A stretch of 64,000 nt of DNA from an uncultured Alphaproteobacteria bacterium (lineage in GTDB: Bacteria > Pseudomonadota > Alphaproteobacteria > ATCC43930 > CGMCC-115725): assembly GCA_963814865.1 (NCBI GenBank), contig CAWFEN010000009.1, positions 167,041-231,040 of the forward strand, in the 5' to 3' direction. The translations under genes and the position numbers were made by a program. The first letter of the stretch is position 1. The number at the start of each line of letters is the position of its first letter. This document shows, piece by piece, positions 9,767-35,728 of the stretch. The notes beneath the pieces were generated by a model. The model was given only the letters and a program-made list of their open reading frames with translations. It ran no database searches and had not been told where the DNA came from.

Positions 9767-10286
9767 GGTCTCGATCCTCCCGCAACTCGGCTCCAGCTTG
9801 ACGCAGAATAAGCCCGGGTTCGGAGCGTGGAAAGCCGGCGCAGATCTGGCAACCTGGAGACTTGAGCTGCCGGCAAAATTTGCATGGCTTTCTCATACCA
9901 GCCATGCTATTTGCGCAGAACGCGCCAGACGGAGCAAATCCGCGGCAAGCGCGTGAAAGGGAGAGGCGAGGGTGATCCGGACGAGCCAGGGACGGGCTCG
10001 CGTCTGGGAGGCGGGAATGACACGACAACCGACGGACGAGGATGCCGGCGAGCGGAGAAACCGCTTGGAAGCCGGCAATATATGGCGGGTCGCGACGGTT
10101 GGATCAGGGCGGGCGGCGGCGCCCGGGGAGCGCGCCCCACGAGCCGGGGTTCGGGAGAAAATCAGGCCGATGCCTAACCCCATCGGGATGGCACCCGAAG
10201 ACGACGCCGGCGGCGACCGCGCTGCGGTCTTTGTGGGATGGCCAAGGATCTTCCCTGGCCTCTAGCGGGATCGCACGGCCTCATAG

Positions 10287-10505
10287 GGTCAACCGGGGCG
10301 AGCAGCAAAAAACCATGCCGCCCACACTTGGAACAGGAGCAACACGCCGGTCGGGCGGCACCTGATGCGGCTGCCGGAATCTGCGAGGCCCAGGCCCAGC
10401 AACGAGCACGCAACTTGAGCTGATTACGCAATAAGGCACCGCGCCGGCCTCGCCTGTTTTGCGCTTCCGCATGGTCCCCCGGGTTCGGCAATCTGGGAGG
10501 TCACC
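10287..10505 (+). promoter_or_regulatory. conserved structured 5' leader, copy 1 (candidate cis-regulatory RNA / riboswitch-like element)
   Basis: Shares architecture with 33869-34081 and 35511-35728. It has a covarying helix (tgccgccc/gggcggca), the loop GGAACAGGAGCAAC, an alternative helix, and a near-identical last 70 nt in which gcATGGTCCCCC is complementary to GGGAGGTCACCATgg (SD plus AUG). Confidence 0.55.
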
Positions 10506-11915
10506 ATGGCAGAGATCCGCCTGCTCGGCCGATCGCCGGCGGACGCCGGCTTTGTGCTCGGCCGCAAGCTCGACAGCATCCCGTTCAGCGCCTACCACCT
10601 CGCGATCATTGCGGTATTGGCGTGCGTTGGTTTTGTCGAGGGTTATGACCTCTCGATCACCGGCTCGCTGCTCGTCCTGGCAAAGCATCCGCTTTCCCTG
10701 ACCGGGGGTGACATTCGCTTTGTCGCCGTCGCTTCGACCTTGATGGCCTGCGTCGGTGGTTTCATGGCCTCGGCAATGTCGGATCATTGGAGTCGCAAGC
10801 TCGTCATGCAAGTGGGCGTGATCGCCACGACCTTTTTCACATTGCTGATTCCGCTCGTCGAGAATGCCGAGCAGCTGATTATCATTCGATTGTTGACGGG
10901 ACTGGGCGGCGGGTTCGCGGTCTCCGCGGCATTTCCAATCGCTGCCGAGCTGATGCCCGCCCGCCACCGGCGCACCTACGGTGCGATCTATGAGATGTCG
11001 TTGGCGGCCTCGTTCACCGCGGTGCTGTTGATCAGCTTCCTGCTCGCCGGCAATCCGAACGCTTTCCGGCTTCTGGCCTTGCCGGGCGGGCTCGCCCTTT
11101 TCACGATGCCGCCCCTGATCCATTTCGTGCTTCCGGAGAGCCCGCGCTGGCATCTGCGCCGCGGCCGCATAGAAGCCGCGGTCGCGGTCGTCAACCGGAT
11201 CATCTCGCGATCCGGCAGTCGGGTGCCGCCACTGACGGCCGCGGCGCTCGGCAGCGACATCGCGACGGCCCGCGAAAAGCTGCCGCCCTACTGGGCCTTG
11301 TTTCGCCCCGGCCAGCTGCGCTGGACCGTTGTCGGAATCCTCAGTGGCCTGTGCGCCGGCATTGCCGCTTATCTGGTCCACGTGCTGCTGCCCAAGGCGC
11401 TGGTCGATCAGGGTGCCGCCGTGTCGCTGAGCTTCGGGCTTGCCACGATCGTGTACGCGGCGAGCATCCCGGGCAAGGCGTTCACCGGGTACCTGATGGA
11501 GATCATCGGCCGGCGCTGGACAATCTTCTATGCCCTCGCCGGATCCTTGCCGGGACTTCTGCTGATGCTGATGGCACACCGCGCCGGGACCCATGCGACG
11601 ATCGTGATGATGGTGGGCGGATTGATTACCGGCTTTACCGTGCTATCGGCGTTCCCGGCAACCCGCGTCTATCTCTCCGAACAATTTCCGACCGCACTGC
11701 GCGGCCGCGGGCACATCTTTGGCGAGTCGTTCGGCCGGGTCTTCGCGGGCGTCCTGGCGCCGTTTCTGATGGCGCCGCACACCGGCTCGCCGGCCATCTT
11801 CTTTGGTACGATCCTGCTCGCAGTCGCGGTCGGCGCCTTCATCCCGCTGGCCTTCGGCCGCGAGACCGTCGGCCAGCTCGAAACCGTGACCGAGGGCGCT
11901 CCGGCATTGGCCTGA
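10506..11915 (+). CDS. MFS transporter (sugar-porter / SV2-NiaP-like metabolite:H+ symporter type), intact paralog
   Basis: 469-aa hydrophobic ORF with LDSIPFSAYHL.., LTGLGGGF, PIAAELMPARHRR, LPESPRWHLRRGR and EQFPTALRGRG. Confidence 0.85.
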   Translation: MAEIRLLGRSPADAGFVLGRKLDSIPFSAYHLAIIAVLACVGFVEGYDLSITGSLLVLAKHPLSLTGGDIRFVAVASTLMACVGGFMASAMSDHWSRKLVMQVGVIATTFFTLLIPLVENAEQLIIIRLLTGLGGGFAVSAAFPIAAELMPARHRRTYGAIYEMSLAASFTAVLLISFLLAGNPNAFRLLALPGGLALFTMPPLIHFVLPESPRWHLRRGRIEAAVAVVNRIISRSGSRVPPLTAAALGSDIATAREKLPPYWALFRPGQLRWTVVGILSGLCAGIAAYLVHVLLPKALVDQGAAVSLSFGLATIVYAASIPGKAFTGYLMEIIGRRWTIFYALAGSLPGLLLMLMAHRAGTHATIVMMVGGLITGFTVLSAFPATRVYLSEQFPTALRGRGHIFGESFGRVFAGVLAPFLMAPHTGSPAIFFGTILLAVAVGAFIPLAFGRETVGQLETVTEGAPALA

Positions 11916-27206: not shown

Positions 27207-27269
27207 CTCTTCTCCTCGGCGAAACGCGCGGGATTGCGCTGCCGCGGCCTGCATCCTATATCTGCGCTG

Positions 27270-27575
27270 TCGGGCAACCGACTATGGCGATACACGGCTT
27301 GTGGAATAAGCGTTGCGGACCCGGGGGCGGTACCCGGCGCCTCCACCAACTCCGCCGCCGGCGACCTGCCGGGGGCGATCCGAGGGGGCGAAACAGGCTC
27401 GACGCGCGTGGTAAAGGCAAGATCCGTCGCCCGGCATGATACCACCGTTATCGGGTCACAACCTAACTGCGAACGACAACTTCGCAACAGAGGCGCTCGC
27501 GGCCTAACCCTTAGCGGGGTAAAAGCCTAGAGCAATTCGCGGTTCGAGGGGCACCGGGCAACAGAAGCCCCTCAC
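27270..27575 (+). ncRNA. ssrA: circularly permuted (two-piece) tmRNA gene
   Basis: The acceptor piece ends ..ggcgcctccACCA at 27348. The coding piece starts GGGGGCGAAACAGGCTCGACG at 27384; its first 7 nt pair with CGCCTCC and give a G3:U pair. The tag ORF GCG AAC GAC AAC TTC GCA ACA GAG GCG CTC GCG GCC TAA (27469-27507) encodes ANDNFATEALAA. The terminal hairpin is gaggggc..gcccctc (27546-27572). The outer boundaries are approximate. Confidence 0.85.
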
Positions 27576-27617
27576 TCGCCTTTGACCCACCCATTGCCAG
27601 CGAGCGAGCCGCCGGAG

Positions 27618-31130: not shown

Positions 31131-31242
31131 AGGCTCTCGCTGATCCGAATGTCGCCGATGGTGGAGCGGCCTCCAACCCCGGAGGTGATGCATGACCCAC
31201 TCGACCCCCAGGCGCGACGAGACAGCGTGGAGGTATTCTGAC

Positions 31243-32637
31243 ATGACCGAGAAATGGTCTCCCCAAAGCTGGCGCGGCCTGCCGATCCGGCAGGTGCCGG
31301 GCTATCCCGACGAGCAGGCGCTCGCCGGCGTCGAGGCGACGTTGCAGCGCTTTCCGCCGCTGGTGTTCGCCGGCGAGGCGCGGCGGCTGGAAGAGCGGCT
31401 GGCGGCGGTCGCTGCCGGCAAGGCTTTTCTGCTGCAGGGCGGCGACTGCGCCGAAAGCTTCGCCGAGTTCCACCCCAACAACATCCGCGACATGTTCAAG
31501 GTGCTGCTGCAGATGGCGGTGGTGCTGACCTTCGGCGCCGGCTGCCCGGTGGTCAAGCTCGGCCGGCTTGCCGGCCAGTTCGCCAAGCCGCGCTCCTCCG
31601 ACACCGAAACCCAAGGCAATGTGACGCTGCCCTCCTACCGCGGCGACATCATCAACGGGCTCGAATTCGACGAGGCGGCGCGCGAGCCCGACCCGCAGCG
31701 CATGGTCCAGGCCTATAGCCAATCGGCCGCGACCCTGAACCTGCTGCGCGCCTTCGCCCAGGGCGGCTATGCCGATCTGCACCGGGTCCATGCCTGGAAC
31801 CAGGATTTCGTCGCCGACTCGCCGCAGGGCGCGCGCTATCGCGAGTTGGCCGACCGGCTGACCGAAACGCTCGATTTCATGGCGGCCTGCGGGCTCAACT
31901 CGGAGACGACGCCGCAGATTCGCGAGACCGAGTTCTACACCTCGCACGAGGCGCTGTTCCTGTCCTATGAGGAGGCGCTGACCCGCGTCGATTCGACGAC
32001 CGGCGAATGGTACGACTGCTCGGCCCATCTGGTCTGGCTCGGCGACCGCACCCGCCAGGTCGACGGTGCCCATGCCGAATTCCTGCGCGGCATCAAGAAC
32101 CCGGTCGGCATGAAATGCGGGCCGACCCTCGAACCGGACGATCTGATCCGCCTGATCGACCGGCTCAACCCGCAGAACAAGCCCGGGCGGCTGACCCTGA
32201 TCACCCGCATGGGCGCCGACAAGGTCGAGGCGCGGCTGCCGCGCCTGATCCGCGCGGTGCGCCGCGAGGGACGCGAGGTCGTGTGGTGCATCGACCCGAT
32301 GCACGGCAACACGATCACCTCGACGAACGGCTACAAGACCCGGATGTTCGATCGCATCCTCGACGAGGTGCACGGCGCCTTTGCGATCCATGCCGCCGAG
32401 GGCAGCCATGCCGGCGGCGTGCATTTCGAGCTGACCGGGCAGAACGTCACCGAATGCCTCGGCGGGTCCCAGGCGATCAGCGAGGCGTCGCTCGCCGACC
32501 GCTACCTGACGCATTGCGATCCGCGGCTCAACGCGACGCAGGCGCTGGAGCTCGCCTTCGAGATCGCCGATGCGCTGAAGACGGCGCGGCAAGGGAATGG
32601 CCGTCACGGCACGAGCCGCCTCGCCGCGGTCTTGTGA
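31243..32637 (+). CDS. class II 3-deoxy-7-phosphoheptulonate (DAHP) synthase
   Basis: [42 protein letters not shown] and GGVHFELTG motifs. GGAGG lies upstream of the ATG. Confidence 0.85.
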
Positions 32638-32650
32638 GGCGGTCGCGATC

Positions 32651-33781
32651 GTGGCGGCAGAGTGGCCCGAGCTGGCGGCGCGGACCGACAGCTATTTCCT
32701 GAAGACCAAGGCGATCGTCGGCCGGTTCGGCGATCGCCCGGCGACCTACGCGGTCTTCCTGCGCCGCCCGGTCATCTGCACGCCGCGTCTCGCGATCGAG
32801 TTTCTCGAACATGCCGCGGCGGAACGCGGCACCCGCTTCGAGATCGAGCTGAACTATCCCGAGGGCGCGCTCGTCGGCGCCGGCGAGCCGATCCTCTATT
32901 TGACCGGGCCGCTCTTCCACCTCGTCGACCTCGAGACCGTGCTGCTGCAAAAGCTCGGCCCGGCCTGCGTCGCCGCCGCCAACGCCTTCGCAATGTGCGC
33001 CGATCTGCCCAAGGTTGCTTTTATGGCGATGGATGCGCGGCACTGCGCCGGAGCCGAAATGGCGCAGATGATGGCTTATGCGGCATCGGTCGGCTCCGAA
33101 GCGGCGCGGCGCGAGACCGGTGCGGTTGGCTTTATCGGCTGCGCCGCCGAGGCCACCGCCCGCTATTTCGGCAAGGAAACGGGTCTCGGCACGATGCCGC
33201 ACGCGCTGATCGGCTATGCCGGCTCGACATTGCGCGCCGCCGAGATGTATCGCGAGGTGTTCCCGGACGAGCCGATGACCGTGCTCGTCGATTTCTTCGG
33301 GCGCGAGATCTCCGACGCGCTGGCGGTTGCCCGCCGCTTTCCGGATCTTGCCGCCGCGGGCGGGCTGGCGGTGCGCATCGATACGCATGGCGGGCGCTAC
33401 GTCGAAGGGCTCGACCTGTCGATGTCCTACGAGGTGCTCGAGCGCCACGCACCGCAGGCGACGCGCGGCTATCGCACCGAGCAGGAATTGCGCTACCTGG
33501 TCGGCACCGGCGTCTCGGCGGCGGCGATCTGGCTGATGCGCCGGACCTTGGACGATGCCGGGTTCGGGGCGGTCAGGATCGTCGCCAGCTCGGGCTTCAG
33601 CCCGGCCAAATGCCGGATGATGGCTGCCGCCGACGCGCCTATCGACGTGATCGGCACCGGCTCCTACCTGCCCGAGCTGTGGAGCGAGACCTATGCCACC
33701 GCCGACATCGTCGCCTATGACGGCGCACCGATGGTCAAAGCCGGCCGCGAATTTCTGCTGCGACAGCGCAGCGAGAGCTAG
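32651..33781 (+). CDS. nicotinate phosphoribosyltransferase-like (type II PRTase family) protein
   Basis: TDSYFLKTKAIV.., ..GTMPHALIGY.., VLVDFFGRE.. and VRIDTHGGRY.. The start is uncertain: GTG at 32651 was chosen to avoid a 41-nt overlap with the DAHP synthase. Confidence 0.6.
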   Translation: MAAEWPELAARTDSYFLKTKAIVGRFGDRPATYAVFLRRPVICTPRLAIEFLEHAAAERGTRFEIELNYPEGALVGAGEPILYLTGPLFHLVDLETVLLQKLGPACVAAANAFAMCADLPKVAFMAMDARHCAGAEMAQMMAYAASVGSEAARRETGAVGFIGCAAEATARYFGKETGLGTMPHALIGYAGSTLRAAEMYREVFPDEPMTVLVDFFGREISDALAVARRFPDLAAAGGLAVRIDTHGGRYVEGLDLSMSYEVLERHAPQATRGYRTEQELRYLVGTGVSAAAIWLMRRTLDDAGFGAVRIVASSGFSPAKCRMMAAADAPIDVIGTGSYLPELWSETYATADIVAYDGAPMVKAGREFLLRQRSES

Positions 33782-33868
33782 CGGCCGAAACCGTACGGGC
33801 CGCTGCGGATTTCCTCGGTGACAATTCGCCGCAGCCGGGTTAGGTTCGGTCGACTGCCAGCACAGGTC

Positions 33869-34081
33869 GGTCAACCGGGCGAGCAAAAAAGAAAACGCCG
33901 CCGGATCGGAACGATAGCAACTCGTCAACCCGGTGGCACTGGACGCGGCCGCCAAAATCGGTGAGGCGTCGGAAAAGCGGCAGAACACCAGAAACTCCTC
34001 CGACAATAAAAAGCGACACGCCGGCCTCGCCCGTTTCGGCTTCTGCATGGTCCCCCGGTTCGACCAATCTGGGAGGTCACC
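33869..34081 (+). promoter_or_regulatory. conserved structured 5' leader, copy 2
   Basis: Same layout as 10287-10505: helix gccgccgg/ccggtggc, loop GGAACGATAGCAAC, and an identical SD/AUG-sequestering 3' block. Confidence 0.5.
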
Positions 34082-35502
34082 ATGGCAGAAGTGCGCCCAA
34101 TCGCCCGATCGGCAACAACGGCCAGCTTTGTCCTCGGACGCAAGCTGGACAGCATCCCGTTCGGCGGCTACCACGTCCTGATCATCGCCGTGCTCGCCCT
34201 CGTTGGGTTTATCGAGGGCTACGATCTGGTGATGACCGGCTCGCTGGTGGTGCTGGCCAAAGGGCCGCTGCATCTTACCGGGGCCGATATAAGGATGCTC
34301 GTCCCTTCCCGACCTTCATGTTGACCCTTGGCGGCTTCTTCTTCTCCGCAATATCCGACCACTTGAGCCGTAAGATCGATCGTGCTGATCGGCGTGTTCT
34401 TGACGACCTTTCTGACCCTGCTGATCCCGCTGGTGCAGAATGCCGAGCAGCTGATCGTTCTGCGCCTGCTGACCGGCATCGGCGCCGGCGGCGTCGGTTT
34501 CGGCGGCGTTCCCGATCGCCGCCGAATTGATGCCCGCGCAGCACCGGCGCACCTATGGCGCGATCTATGAGATGGCGTTGGCGACCTCCTTCACCGTGGT
34601 GCCGTTCATCGGCCTTCCTGCTCGCCGGCAATGTCGAACGCCTTTCGGTTTCTGGCTTTGCCGGGCGGGCTGGCGGTGACCATCATTCCTGTGCATCGAT
34701 CTATTTCGTGCTTCCCGAAAGCCCACGCTGGTATTTGCGCAAAGGCCAGCCGCAGGTCGGCGGTCGATATCGTCAACCAGATCATCAGGCGATCCGGCAA
34801 CCGGGTGCCGCCGCTGACGGTCGAGGCGCTCGGCGACGCGACGCCGAAGCGGCCCCGAGAAGCTGCCGCCCTATTGGGCCTTGTTCGCCCGCGGCCAGCT
34901 GCGCTGGACGACGGTCGGCATTCTCGCCGGCGTGTGCGCCGGCACCGCCTTTTTCCTGATTTCAGTCCTGCTGCCAAAGGCGCTGGTCGATCAGGGCTGC
35001 GCCGTCAGTCTCGGGCTTCGGGATTGACCTCGGTCGTCTATTTGGCGAGCTTTTTCGGGAAAGGTTTCACCGGGTATCCTGATGGAGATCATCGGGCGGC
35101 GTTGGACGATCGCTTATGCGCTCCTCGGATCGCTGCCGGGCGTTGTGTTGATGCTGCTGGCGCATCGTGCGGGGGGCTATGCGGGCGTGGTGATGGTGGC
35201 GGGAGGGCTGATCATCGGCTTTACCGTGCTGTCTGCCTTTACCGCTACGCGCGTCTACCTGTCCGAGCAGTTCCCGACGGCATTGCGCGGGCGCGGGCAC
35301 ATTTTCGGCGAATCGTTCGGGAGGCTGTTTGCCGGCGTGACTGGCGCCGTTTTTGATGGAGCCGCACACCGCCTCGCCGACGATCTTCTTCGGCACGATC
35401 TTCGTTGTCGTGGCGATCGGCGCGTTCATCCCGCTGGCGTTCGGCAAGGAGACCATGGGTCAACTCGAAATCGTGACCGAGACTGTGCCGGCGCTGGCCT
35501 GA
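34082..35502 (+). pseudogene. MFS transporter paralog 2, many frameshifts
   Basis: Paralog-like peptides are scattered over all three frames: MAEVRPIARS..LDSIPFGGYH.., FMLTLGGFFFSAISDHLSRK, MLIGVFLTTFLTLLIPLVQNAEQL.., YFVLPESPRWYLRKGQ.., MEIIGRRWTIAYALLGSLPG..EQFPTALRGRGHIFGESFG... The homologous end is ..LEIVTETVPALA* at 35500-35502. Confidence 0.8.
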
Positions 35503-35510
35503 TCGTGCCA

Positions 35511-35728
35511 GTCGGCCAAGCGACGAGCGGCAACAAGCGCCGTCAATCTGGAACAGGAGCAACCCGTCGACCCGGTGGCGCACGTTGCGGCCCGCCGTAA
35601 TTGGTGAGGTGTCGGCAAAGGCCCAGGTCAGCAAAGCCAGAAATTTCGCCATCGAGAACTGACAGGCCGGCCTCGCCCGTTTTCGGCTGCAGCATGGTCC
35701 CCGGGTTCAATCAATCTGGGAGGTCACC
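35511..35728 (+). promoter_or_regulatory. conserved structured 5' leader, copy 3
   Basis: Same layout: helix gcgcc/ggcgc, loop GGAACAGGAGCAAC, and an identical SD/AUG block. It fills almost the whole gap between MFS paralogs 2 and 3. Confidence 0.5.

Follow-up and report, generated by a model that had tools for sequence, protein, structure and literature searches.

A 64-kb stretch of DNA from a contig of an uncultured alphaproteobacterium (the window, 64,000 nucleotides in all) contains three paralogous genes for transporters of the major facilitator superfamily (MFS), and each of them is preceded by a related segment that ends exactly at its ATG (10506, 34082 and 35729). The question raised by this locus is whether these segments constitute a regulatory RNA and, if so, by what means it would act on the transporters. 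Comparative analysis suggests, with a probability of about 0.7, that they encode a conserved 5’ leader RNA of several helices, which controls translation of the downstream MFS gene in cis. Two mutually exclusive helices, one predicted to bury the Shine-Dalgarno (SD) sequence and the other to release it, are both maintained by compensatory base changes across more than one hundred homologs.

The three leaders lie on the forward strand. Leader copy 1 (10294..10505) is the full-length 5’ leader of an intact MFS gene and is matched by the covariance model over positions 10294-10514 (185 bits with R1 and R2). Leader copy 2 (33875..34081; 187 bits) contains the conserved single strand J at 33906-33933 and the hairpin P5 at 34052-34076, and is followed by a frameshifted MFS remnant (34082-35502). 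Leader copy 3 (35519..35728; 202 bits), with J at 35548-35575 and P5 at 35699-35723, likewise precedes a frameshifted remnant (35729 to ~37150). These are exactly the three covariance-model sites in the window (185-202 bits). Homology between the copies extends from ~215 nucleotides (nt) upstream of the ATG to the stop codon, and identity across whole leaders (60–67%) is below that of the coding regions (~75%). The final 24 nt together with the start and first codons, AATCTGGGAGGTCACCATGGCAGA, are identical in 3/3 copies (chance expectation 0). The first-pass annotation of this DNA, made by eye, described a 3’ block of ~70 nt as almost identical among the copies; this is an overstatement, as pairwise identity there is 76–86%. 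From the copy 2 stop codon (35500-35502) onwards, leader 3 occupies the entire gap, and would therefore be co-transcribed with copy 2.

Homologs were sought by scanning one genome per species with the copy 1 protein, which yielded 80 loci, all from metagenome-assembled genomes labelled Stellaceae, Acetobacteraceae or unclassified Alphaproteobacteria, with proteins 71–91% identical to the query. A profile (nhmmer) built from the three leaders identified 96 more leaders in these loci, all on the gene strand, and covariance models raised the number to 121–128. Of the 128 model matches, 125 end at an MFS start codon; conversely, 125/132 MFS starts in these loci are preceded by a leader. The MFS genes often form tandem arrays in which the leader spans the whole intergenic gap. 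A metagenome scan with the 15-mer CAGGAGCAACACGTC returned mostly chance matches, recovered true leaders in 4/80 loci, and says little about wider distribution.

None of the three leaders matches an Rfam family, whether gathering scores are applied or all matches with E up to 10 are considered. In Rfam 15 (4227 models), transfer-messenger RNA (tmRNA) models are the sole matches in the window and none is relevant to the leaders; 14 homologous loci gave 0 matches, and a literature search returned nothing on this leader motif. With more than 120 copies, several covarying helices and no Rfam match, the initial proposal of an unclassified, structured cis-regulatory leader holds.

Structure was read from a 97-sequence alignment and then subjected to formal tests, and the structural evidence is comparative throughout. 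Two covariance-model alignments were used: A4, fitted to a structure termed OFF that contains P5, and A5, fitted to a structure termed ON that contains the competing helix J:T. Such alignments favour their own structure, and this was countered by testing each competing helix on the alignment of its rival. Paired cells and double-change cells were compared with shuffled controls, which ignore relatedness between sequences. Column pairs of the model alignment (22,155 in total) were ranked by a G-test with average product correction (APC), and an alignment-free duplex test compared the two strands of the same sequence (cognate) with strands drawn from different sequences; controls in this test fell within +/- 2. 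Plain MAFFT alignments (A2) misaligned the C-run and G-run of the P5 region, such that the outer half of J:T seemed 46% paired, and were replaced by the covariance-model alignments and the duplex test. Single-sequence minimum free energy (MFE) folds were inconsistent between copies and were set aside for the structural model. On A4, the OFF structure has 81.9% of cells paired (76.2% shuffled) and 178 double-change cells, as compared to 60.6 +/- 6.8 in shuffles, a level reached by 0/500 of them. On A5, the ON structure has 81.3% of cells paired (74.4% shuffled) and 225 double-change cells (81 shuffled; 0/500).

From 5’ to 3’, the leader begins with hairpin P1 and the single strand J, followed by hairpin P2, by the long P3 helix, whose tip varies, and by two more hairpins, the small P4 and P5; coordinates below are those of copy 1, on the forward strand. 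P1 (10297-10304 with 10316-10322, GGCG(A)GCA/TGCCGCC) closes an A-rich loop. Its pairs occupy ranks 1, 2 and 3 of the 22,155, changes on both sides are present in 7/7 pairs, and the duplex z is -8.8. J (10328-10355, TTGGAACAGGAGCAACACGCCGGTCGGG; consensus UGGAACAGGAGCAACACGUCGAUCCGG) is the most conserved block of the family, and few columns are as conserved as those of its unpaired stretch GGAACAGGAGCAACACGUC and of the P5 loop UUCGAC. The 3’ end of J (10346-10355, GCCGGTCGGG, or GCCGGUCGGG as RNA; consensus GUCGAUCCGG) provides the putative anti-sequestor strand. No pairing signal was detected between the 5’ part of J and T, the P3 3’ strand, the P5 5’ strand or the start region. J contains an AGGAG, and no ATG, GTG or TTG occurs 4–12 nt past it in the three copies or the consensus; leader-peptide attenuation was rejected on this ground.

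P2 (10354-10359 with 10370-10375, GGCGGC/GCTGCC) has 81.8% of cells paired on A4, double changes in 6/6 pairs, and a duplex z of -4.8. P3 (10383-10389 with 10447-10453, GCGAGGC/GCCTCGC) is a long-range helix that encloses a variable insert (10390-10446) and continues in an extension (10376-10382 with 10454-10459; GGAATCT with CTGTTT in copy 1, AGAAC-like sequences with GUUUU in the family). P3 pairs rank 4 and 10 of 22,155, 90.6% of cells are paired, and the duplex z is -9.4 for P3 with its extension and -5.8 to -6.3 for the extension alone; one clade carries GUGGAG/CUCCAC and CGAAUGGAG/CUCCAUUCG in place of the usual P3. P4 (10460-10471, TGCG-CTTC-CGCA) varies among homologs as CGG/CCG, GCUG/CAGC, GCCG/CGGC, CGCGG/CCGCG and CUGCG/CGCAG. 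Outside the modelled helices, A4 model positions 64, 79 and 84, which fall in the P2 loop and at GGAAC-like positions past P2, covary strongly with one another (APC z = 7.8 and 7.3; for example CG 22 / UG 19 / GA 16 / AU 9). They may be subfamily marks or an unmodelled contact.

The SD sequence, GGGAGG (10495-10500), is located 5 nt upstream of the ATG within P5 (10476-10485 with 10490-10500, CCCCCGGGTT/AATCTGGGAGG, loop CGGC; strands CCCCCGGGUU/AAUCUGGGAGG). Compensated P5 variants include CCGAG/CUCGG, CCUGGACUG/CAGUCCAGG and CUCCCAGU/ACUGGGAG; the duplex z is -6.1, and P5 pairs are found at ranks 43 and 49 of 22,155. On A5, which was not fitted to P5, this hairpin has 17 double-change cells compared to 8.6 +/- 2.5 (0/500 shuffles) and a covariation score of 0.163 compared to 0.146 (0/500). 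Two further pairings are complementary in the consensus and were rejected for lack of covariation, namely the U run with the first codons (GCAGAA; z = +0.6) and CAUGGU with ACCAUG as an extension of P5 (z = -0.9).

The competing helix is formed by the 3’ end of J (10346-10355) and a target, T (10479-10489, CCGGGTTCGGC, or CCGGGUUCGGC as RNA; consensus CCGG(G/A)UUCGAC), that includes P5 5’ strand and P5 loop. J:T comprises ten base pairs and one bulge, and it overlaps two base pairs at the foot of P2. P5 and J:T have the strand CCGGGUU in common and are mutually exclusive. On A4, which was not fitted to J:T, this helix has 79.6% of cells paired compared to 78.1 +/- 0.5 in shuffles (0/500), 44 double-change cells compared to 23.1 +/- 5.1 (0/500), and a covariation score of 0.177 compared to 0.161 (4/500). 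Single pairs illustrate the exchange, with GC 56 / AU 15 / GU 7 at one and CG 33 / UG 30 / UA 12 at another. The duplex z is -7.1 to -7.6, and J:T pairs are found at ranks 202, 225 and 521 of 22,155. The 97 distinct J/T haplotypes include many compensations (GUCAA/UUGAC, CAGUCC/GGACUG, CGAACCGG/CCGGUUCG, GCUCGG/CCGAGC and CUGG/CCAG); copy 1 itself carries GCCGG/UCGGC in place of the consensus GUCGA/UCGAC. ON and OFF covariance models give almost identical scores on the same sequences. Constrained folding of 102 leaders places OFF lower in 69%, with a median E(ON) - E(OFF) of +2.3 kcal/mol and 37% of leaders within 3 kcal/mol, which shows two states of near-equal predicted stability.

These features suggest a switch at translation initiation rather than at transcription termination. 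In the OFF state, the C-rich strand CCCCCGGGUU would pair with AAUCUGGGAGG in P5 and bury the SD 5 nt before the ATG. In the ON state, the 3’ end of J (GUCGAUCCGG) would instead pair with the same C-rich strand and the P5 loop (CCGGGUUCGAC), closing a junction around P2, P3 and P4, blocking P5, and freeing the ribosome-binding site. The balance between P5 and J:T would set translation of each MFS gene, and may be shifted, one way or the other, by a factor bound at the conserved J and junction region. J is transcribed ~130 nt before T, and J:T could thus form first unless J is held.

This arrangement differs from the one first proposed, in which GCCGCC/GGCGGC formed an aptamer stem around a GGAAC..AGCAAC loop and its 3’ strand switched to a downstream GCUGCC as expression platform. 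The strands of that stem (tgccgccc/gggcggca in copy 1) are complementary in 3/3 window copies, and 78% of cells pair across homologs. Every covariation measure, however, equals the shuffled expectation across 120 homologs: 78.1% of cells are paired compared to 78.4% shuffled (343/500 shuffles reach this level), there are 8 double-change cells where 7.8 are expected, the APC mean z is -0.44, and the duplex z is -0.6 to -1.0. The strand tgccgccc is instead the 3’ strand of P1, and its true covarying partner is the upstream GGCGAGC. Changes to CGCUCCC, CCGCUCC, CGUCGCC and CCGGCC are compensated upstream (GGGAGCG, GGAGGCGG, GGCAGACG and GGCCGG) while GGCGGC stays constant; in L018, L066, L061, L072 and L044, a change in GCCGCC is met by the upstream GGCGAGC and not by GGCGGC. 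The complementarity of GCCGCC and GGCGGC thus arises because two GC-rich strands are each conserved for other partners. The downstream alternative, ggcggc/gctgcc, is real, as it corresponds to the moderately supported hairpin P2, and the idea of mutually exclusive folds stands insofar as two competing pairings exist; the competition is that of P5 with J:T and not of the pair first named, which would leave the SD untouched. The aptamer-stem model is consequently very unlikely, and it illustrates how apparent compensation among three paralogs, where sequence is GC-rich, can single out the wrong helix.

Sequence variants of the leader occur in other genomes. Short leaders in tandem arrays (L055:3958-4009, L056:5429-5478, L063:5427-5478, L045:5424-5474, L070:5430-5479 and L047:2594-2642) are reduced to P1, some A residues and the SD, without J, P2, P3, P4 or P5. 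Retention of just P1 and the SD implies a separable module running from J to P5, and these natural deletion variants should escape the predicted switch. A distant, lower-GC leader from a metagenome (L085:930-1130, 58 bits) lies upstream of a different MFS subfamily; its J is directly followed by a GAGGAG with the potential to pair with the CCCUCC anti-SD, a possible different solution to the anti-sequestor function. Two diverged leaders, L001:3815-4009 and L004:3804-4009 (43–50 bits), have CGCACCGCAACAAGAU in place of the J consensus GGAACAGGAGCAAC.

What might trigger the proposed switch is considered with more caution. A small-molecule ligand, which would make the leader a riboswitch, is tentatively regarded as the most likely factor, followed by a protein or a small RNA. 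The multi-helix junction, the invariant unpaired nucleotides and a three-part platform like that of thiM make a ligand the most attractive trigger; its probability is kept low by the confinement of the motif to one lineage and one gene family. In its fuller form, this possibility is a new riboswitch class in which the J/P2/P3/P4 junction binds a metabolite and shifts the balance between P5 and J:T, with each MFS member of large tandem arrays in soil Stellaceae translated, or not, on its own, and it is less likely than not. The metabolite could be a pyridine or organic-cation compound, a guess prompted by a conserved neighbouring gene resembling nicotinate phosphoribosyltransferase (NAPRT) and by the SLC22-like nature of the carrier; the suggestion of nicotinate has the NAPRT-like neighbour as its sole basis. 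The same two-state structure might alternatively respond to a trans-acting protein or small RNA at the purine-rich J (GGAACAGGAGCAAC) or at the C-rich strand. J presents GGA and AGGAG motifs in a single-stranded context, like many sites of RNA-binding proteins, and both the restricted lineage and the use of one leader by all paralogs, whatever their substrate, fit a global regulator. This trigger is nonetheless unlikely, since no complement to J or T was found elsewhere in the 64-kb window, no conserved regulator gene was found beside the loci, and the leader is long, with more conserved helices than a simple binding site needs.

Explanations that dispense with switching are less probable still. 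A constitutive structured 5’ untranslated region (UTR) or intercistronic element, one that stabilises mRNA, helps to process tandem arrays or fixes the level of translation, would account for the retention of P1 even in short leaders without J to P5, for leaders that span the full gap between tandem genes, and for an overall predicted stability that is unremarkable. It is improbable because a passive stabiliser is not expected to keep both exclusive helices on one strand by compensatory changes, nor to hold ~20 unpaired J nucleotides among the most conserved parts of the leader. Transcription attenuation is highly improbable: although the GC-rich helix GCGAGGC/GCCUCGC is directly followed by a short U run, and P3 with GUUUU could thus resemble an intrinsic terminator, the U run covaries with the upstream AGAAC as an extension of the helix (z = -5.8 to -6.3) and is exchanged for CUCAC or AUUCG in clades with a changed partner. 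In addition, the arms of P3 are ~55 nt apart, and a terminator scan did not report the site. A compact hairpin with a conserved U tract was accordingly rejected, the U run being a helix strand. That the similarity is a passive remnant of gene duplication or conversion, with a functionless upstream sequence, is scarcely credible. The unit of homology does comprise leader and coding sequence, with similarity ending at the stop codon and at about -215, and two copies do precede pseudogenes; yet the leader is kept across paralogs and genomes whose proteins are just 71–91% identical, and its block-wise conservation and base-pair covariation contradict such an origin.

Several observations nevertheless weigh against a cis-acting translational switch. 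MFE folds of the three leaders taken singly are no stabler than shuffles (z = +0.4, -1.4 and +0.1). The shuffle controls take no account of relatedness, and the fractions they yield are not probabilities. Column-wise covariation of P5, J:T and P2 is modest, with APC mean z values of ~1.2–1.3 (1.3 for P2), and P4 is statistically weak (66% of cells paired; duplex z = -1.4). Conservation of the 5’ two thirds of J is too high to reveal a pairing partner. The family belongs to one bacterial lineage and precedes one gene family, and its conservation could largely reflect co-duplication with the gene. L001 and L004 encode the closest MFS orthologs of copy 1 (83–91% identity), yet their leaders lack the J consensus; divergence of these leaders despite close proteins means that leader and gene do not always co-evolve. 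Finally, two of the three window leaders sit before pseudogenes.

Judged by sequence and predicted structure, the leader belongs to a known kind of cis-regulatory RNA, one based on SD sequestration and anti-sequestration, and represents a new family there, outside all Rfam families. It has features expected of riboswitches in general: a structure backed by covariation (P1, P3, P5, P2 and J:T), conserved unpaired or junction nucleotides, and exclusive structures predicted to control the SD. Association with several gene families of one pathway was not observed, as 125/128 matches precede MFS paralogs. The closest parallels are the thiM thiamine pyrophosphate (TPP) and btuB cobalamin riboswitches of E. 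coli, where a strand of an upstream structured domain likewise competes with the SD for the anti-SD strand. These are also 5’ UTR elements by a transporter or salvage gene, with several covarying helices and strongly conserved unpaired nucleotides. The leader differs in having no sequence or structure match to the Rfam riboswitch models, in being a candidate only for ligand sensing, and in the position of its anti-anti-SD, which lies ~130 nt upstream of the anti-SD and is separated from it by three helices. The NAD+ riboswitches of class I (nadA motif) and class II (pnuC motif) are candidates for control of niacin-related uptake, and leader arrays adjoin the NAPRT-like gene; however, the leader matches neither Rfam model at E up to 10, and architecture, size and lineage differ. 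The nadA motif is known mainly from Acidobacteria, the pnuC motif from Streptococcus.

RNA thermometers such as ROSE and fourU resemble the leader in that the SD is buried in an imperfect hairpin just before the start codon, in the setting of an alphaproteobacterium. Thermometers are short, lack a conserved cis anti-sequestor, and precede heat-shock or virulence genes, whereas the leader, at ~215 nt, maintains a competing helix of 10 bp along with a further ~150 nt of conserved structure, precedes transporters, and has no Rfam ROSE match. Leaders of the rpoS type are also long 5’ UTRs in which an upstream strand occludes the ribosome-binding site until a displacing strand permits translation. 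In rpoS, the displacing strand is supplied in trans (DsrA, RprA, ArcZ); in the leader it is encoded in cis, by J, and no trans partner was found in the window.

If the leader senses a ligand, it would represent a structurally complex orphan riboswitch class from abundant, little-studied soil alphaproteobacteria. It would also provide a handle on the cargo of a large, expanded family of uncharacterised MFS transporters, which has more than 2000 relatives in public data, often in tandem arrays with a leader for each gene. Even with a protein or small RNA as trigger, the leader would be a clean natural case of an SD switch whose two states can both be seen by covariation and are therefore directly testable with compensatory mutants.

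The intact MFS gene downstream of leader copy 1 (10506..11915, forward strand) encodes 469 amino acids with Pfam MFS_1 and Sugar_tr matches, and only this leader copy precedes an intact gene. The nearest solved structures are those of SLC22 transporters for organic cations and carnitine (OCTN2, OCT1-3; E = 1e-14 to 1e-12). Matches to the NCBIfam AAHS (aromatic-acid) and organic-cation subfamily models fall far short of the cut-offs, and public sources use just the name ‘putative metabolite:H+ symporter’, with no substrate-specific name. Relative to copy 1, MFS copies 2 and 3 each contain ~ten or more single-base insertions or deletions and are spread over three frames, with first in-frame stops at codon 81 (copy 2) and codon 163 (copy 3). 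Both look like real pseudogenes from their sequences, though the scores of their leaders are no lower than that of the leader before the intact gene. The neighbouring DAHP synthase gene, NAPRT-like gene and leuC are intact beside the broken MFS copies.

The NAPRT-like gene (32597..33781, forward strand) is a conserved upstream neighbour of the leader-MFS array and not part of the RNA. The closest Protein Data Bank entry to its product is 2i14; NCBIfam nicotinate phosphoribosyltransferase models score below cut-off (120 bits compared to 378), and there is no Pfam match at 1e-5. With scores this far below cut-off, the protein may act on a substrate other than nicotinate. The order class II DAHP synthase, NAPRT-like gene, (leader-MFS)n (31192-33781 in the window; the c2/c3 locus type) is present in ~39/80 loci, and in the c1 locus type a divergent alcohol dehydrogenase gene recurs. 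Among the conserved neighbour genes across loci, no regulator was found.

A promoter-like sequence, GTGACA-N17-TAGGTT (33818..33846, forward strand), lies just upstream of leader copy 2, and TGACAA-N17-TAGGCT precedes the non-tandem leaders in L055 (2445-2475), L056, L058 and L063. The copy 2 sequence fails a strict E. coli-type scan, and for this reason the promoter can only be called putative. A sigma-54 or extracytoplasmic function (ECF) promoter reading of GGAAC..GCAAC was rejected, judging by sequence, for its ill-fitting spacings. In many other leaders, a TAnnnT box is found 10–20 nt before a small hairpin (P0) that precedes P1.

Within the 740-nt gap that separates the alcohol dehydrogenase gene from leader 1, a stretch of ~150–210 nt (~9884-10095) is conserved at 69–82% identity in L002, L003, L006, L009, L011 and L027, and contains no convincing open reading frame. 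Terminator-like hairpins occur at 10167-10186 (reverse strand) and 10210-10225 (forward strand). Elsewhere in the window, positions 27230-27598 encode a two-piece (permuted) alphaproteobacterial tmRNA (Rfam RF01849, 235 bits), for which ARAGORN gives the tag peptide ANDNFATEALAA; this supports the taxonomic placement of the DNA.

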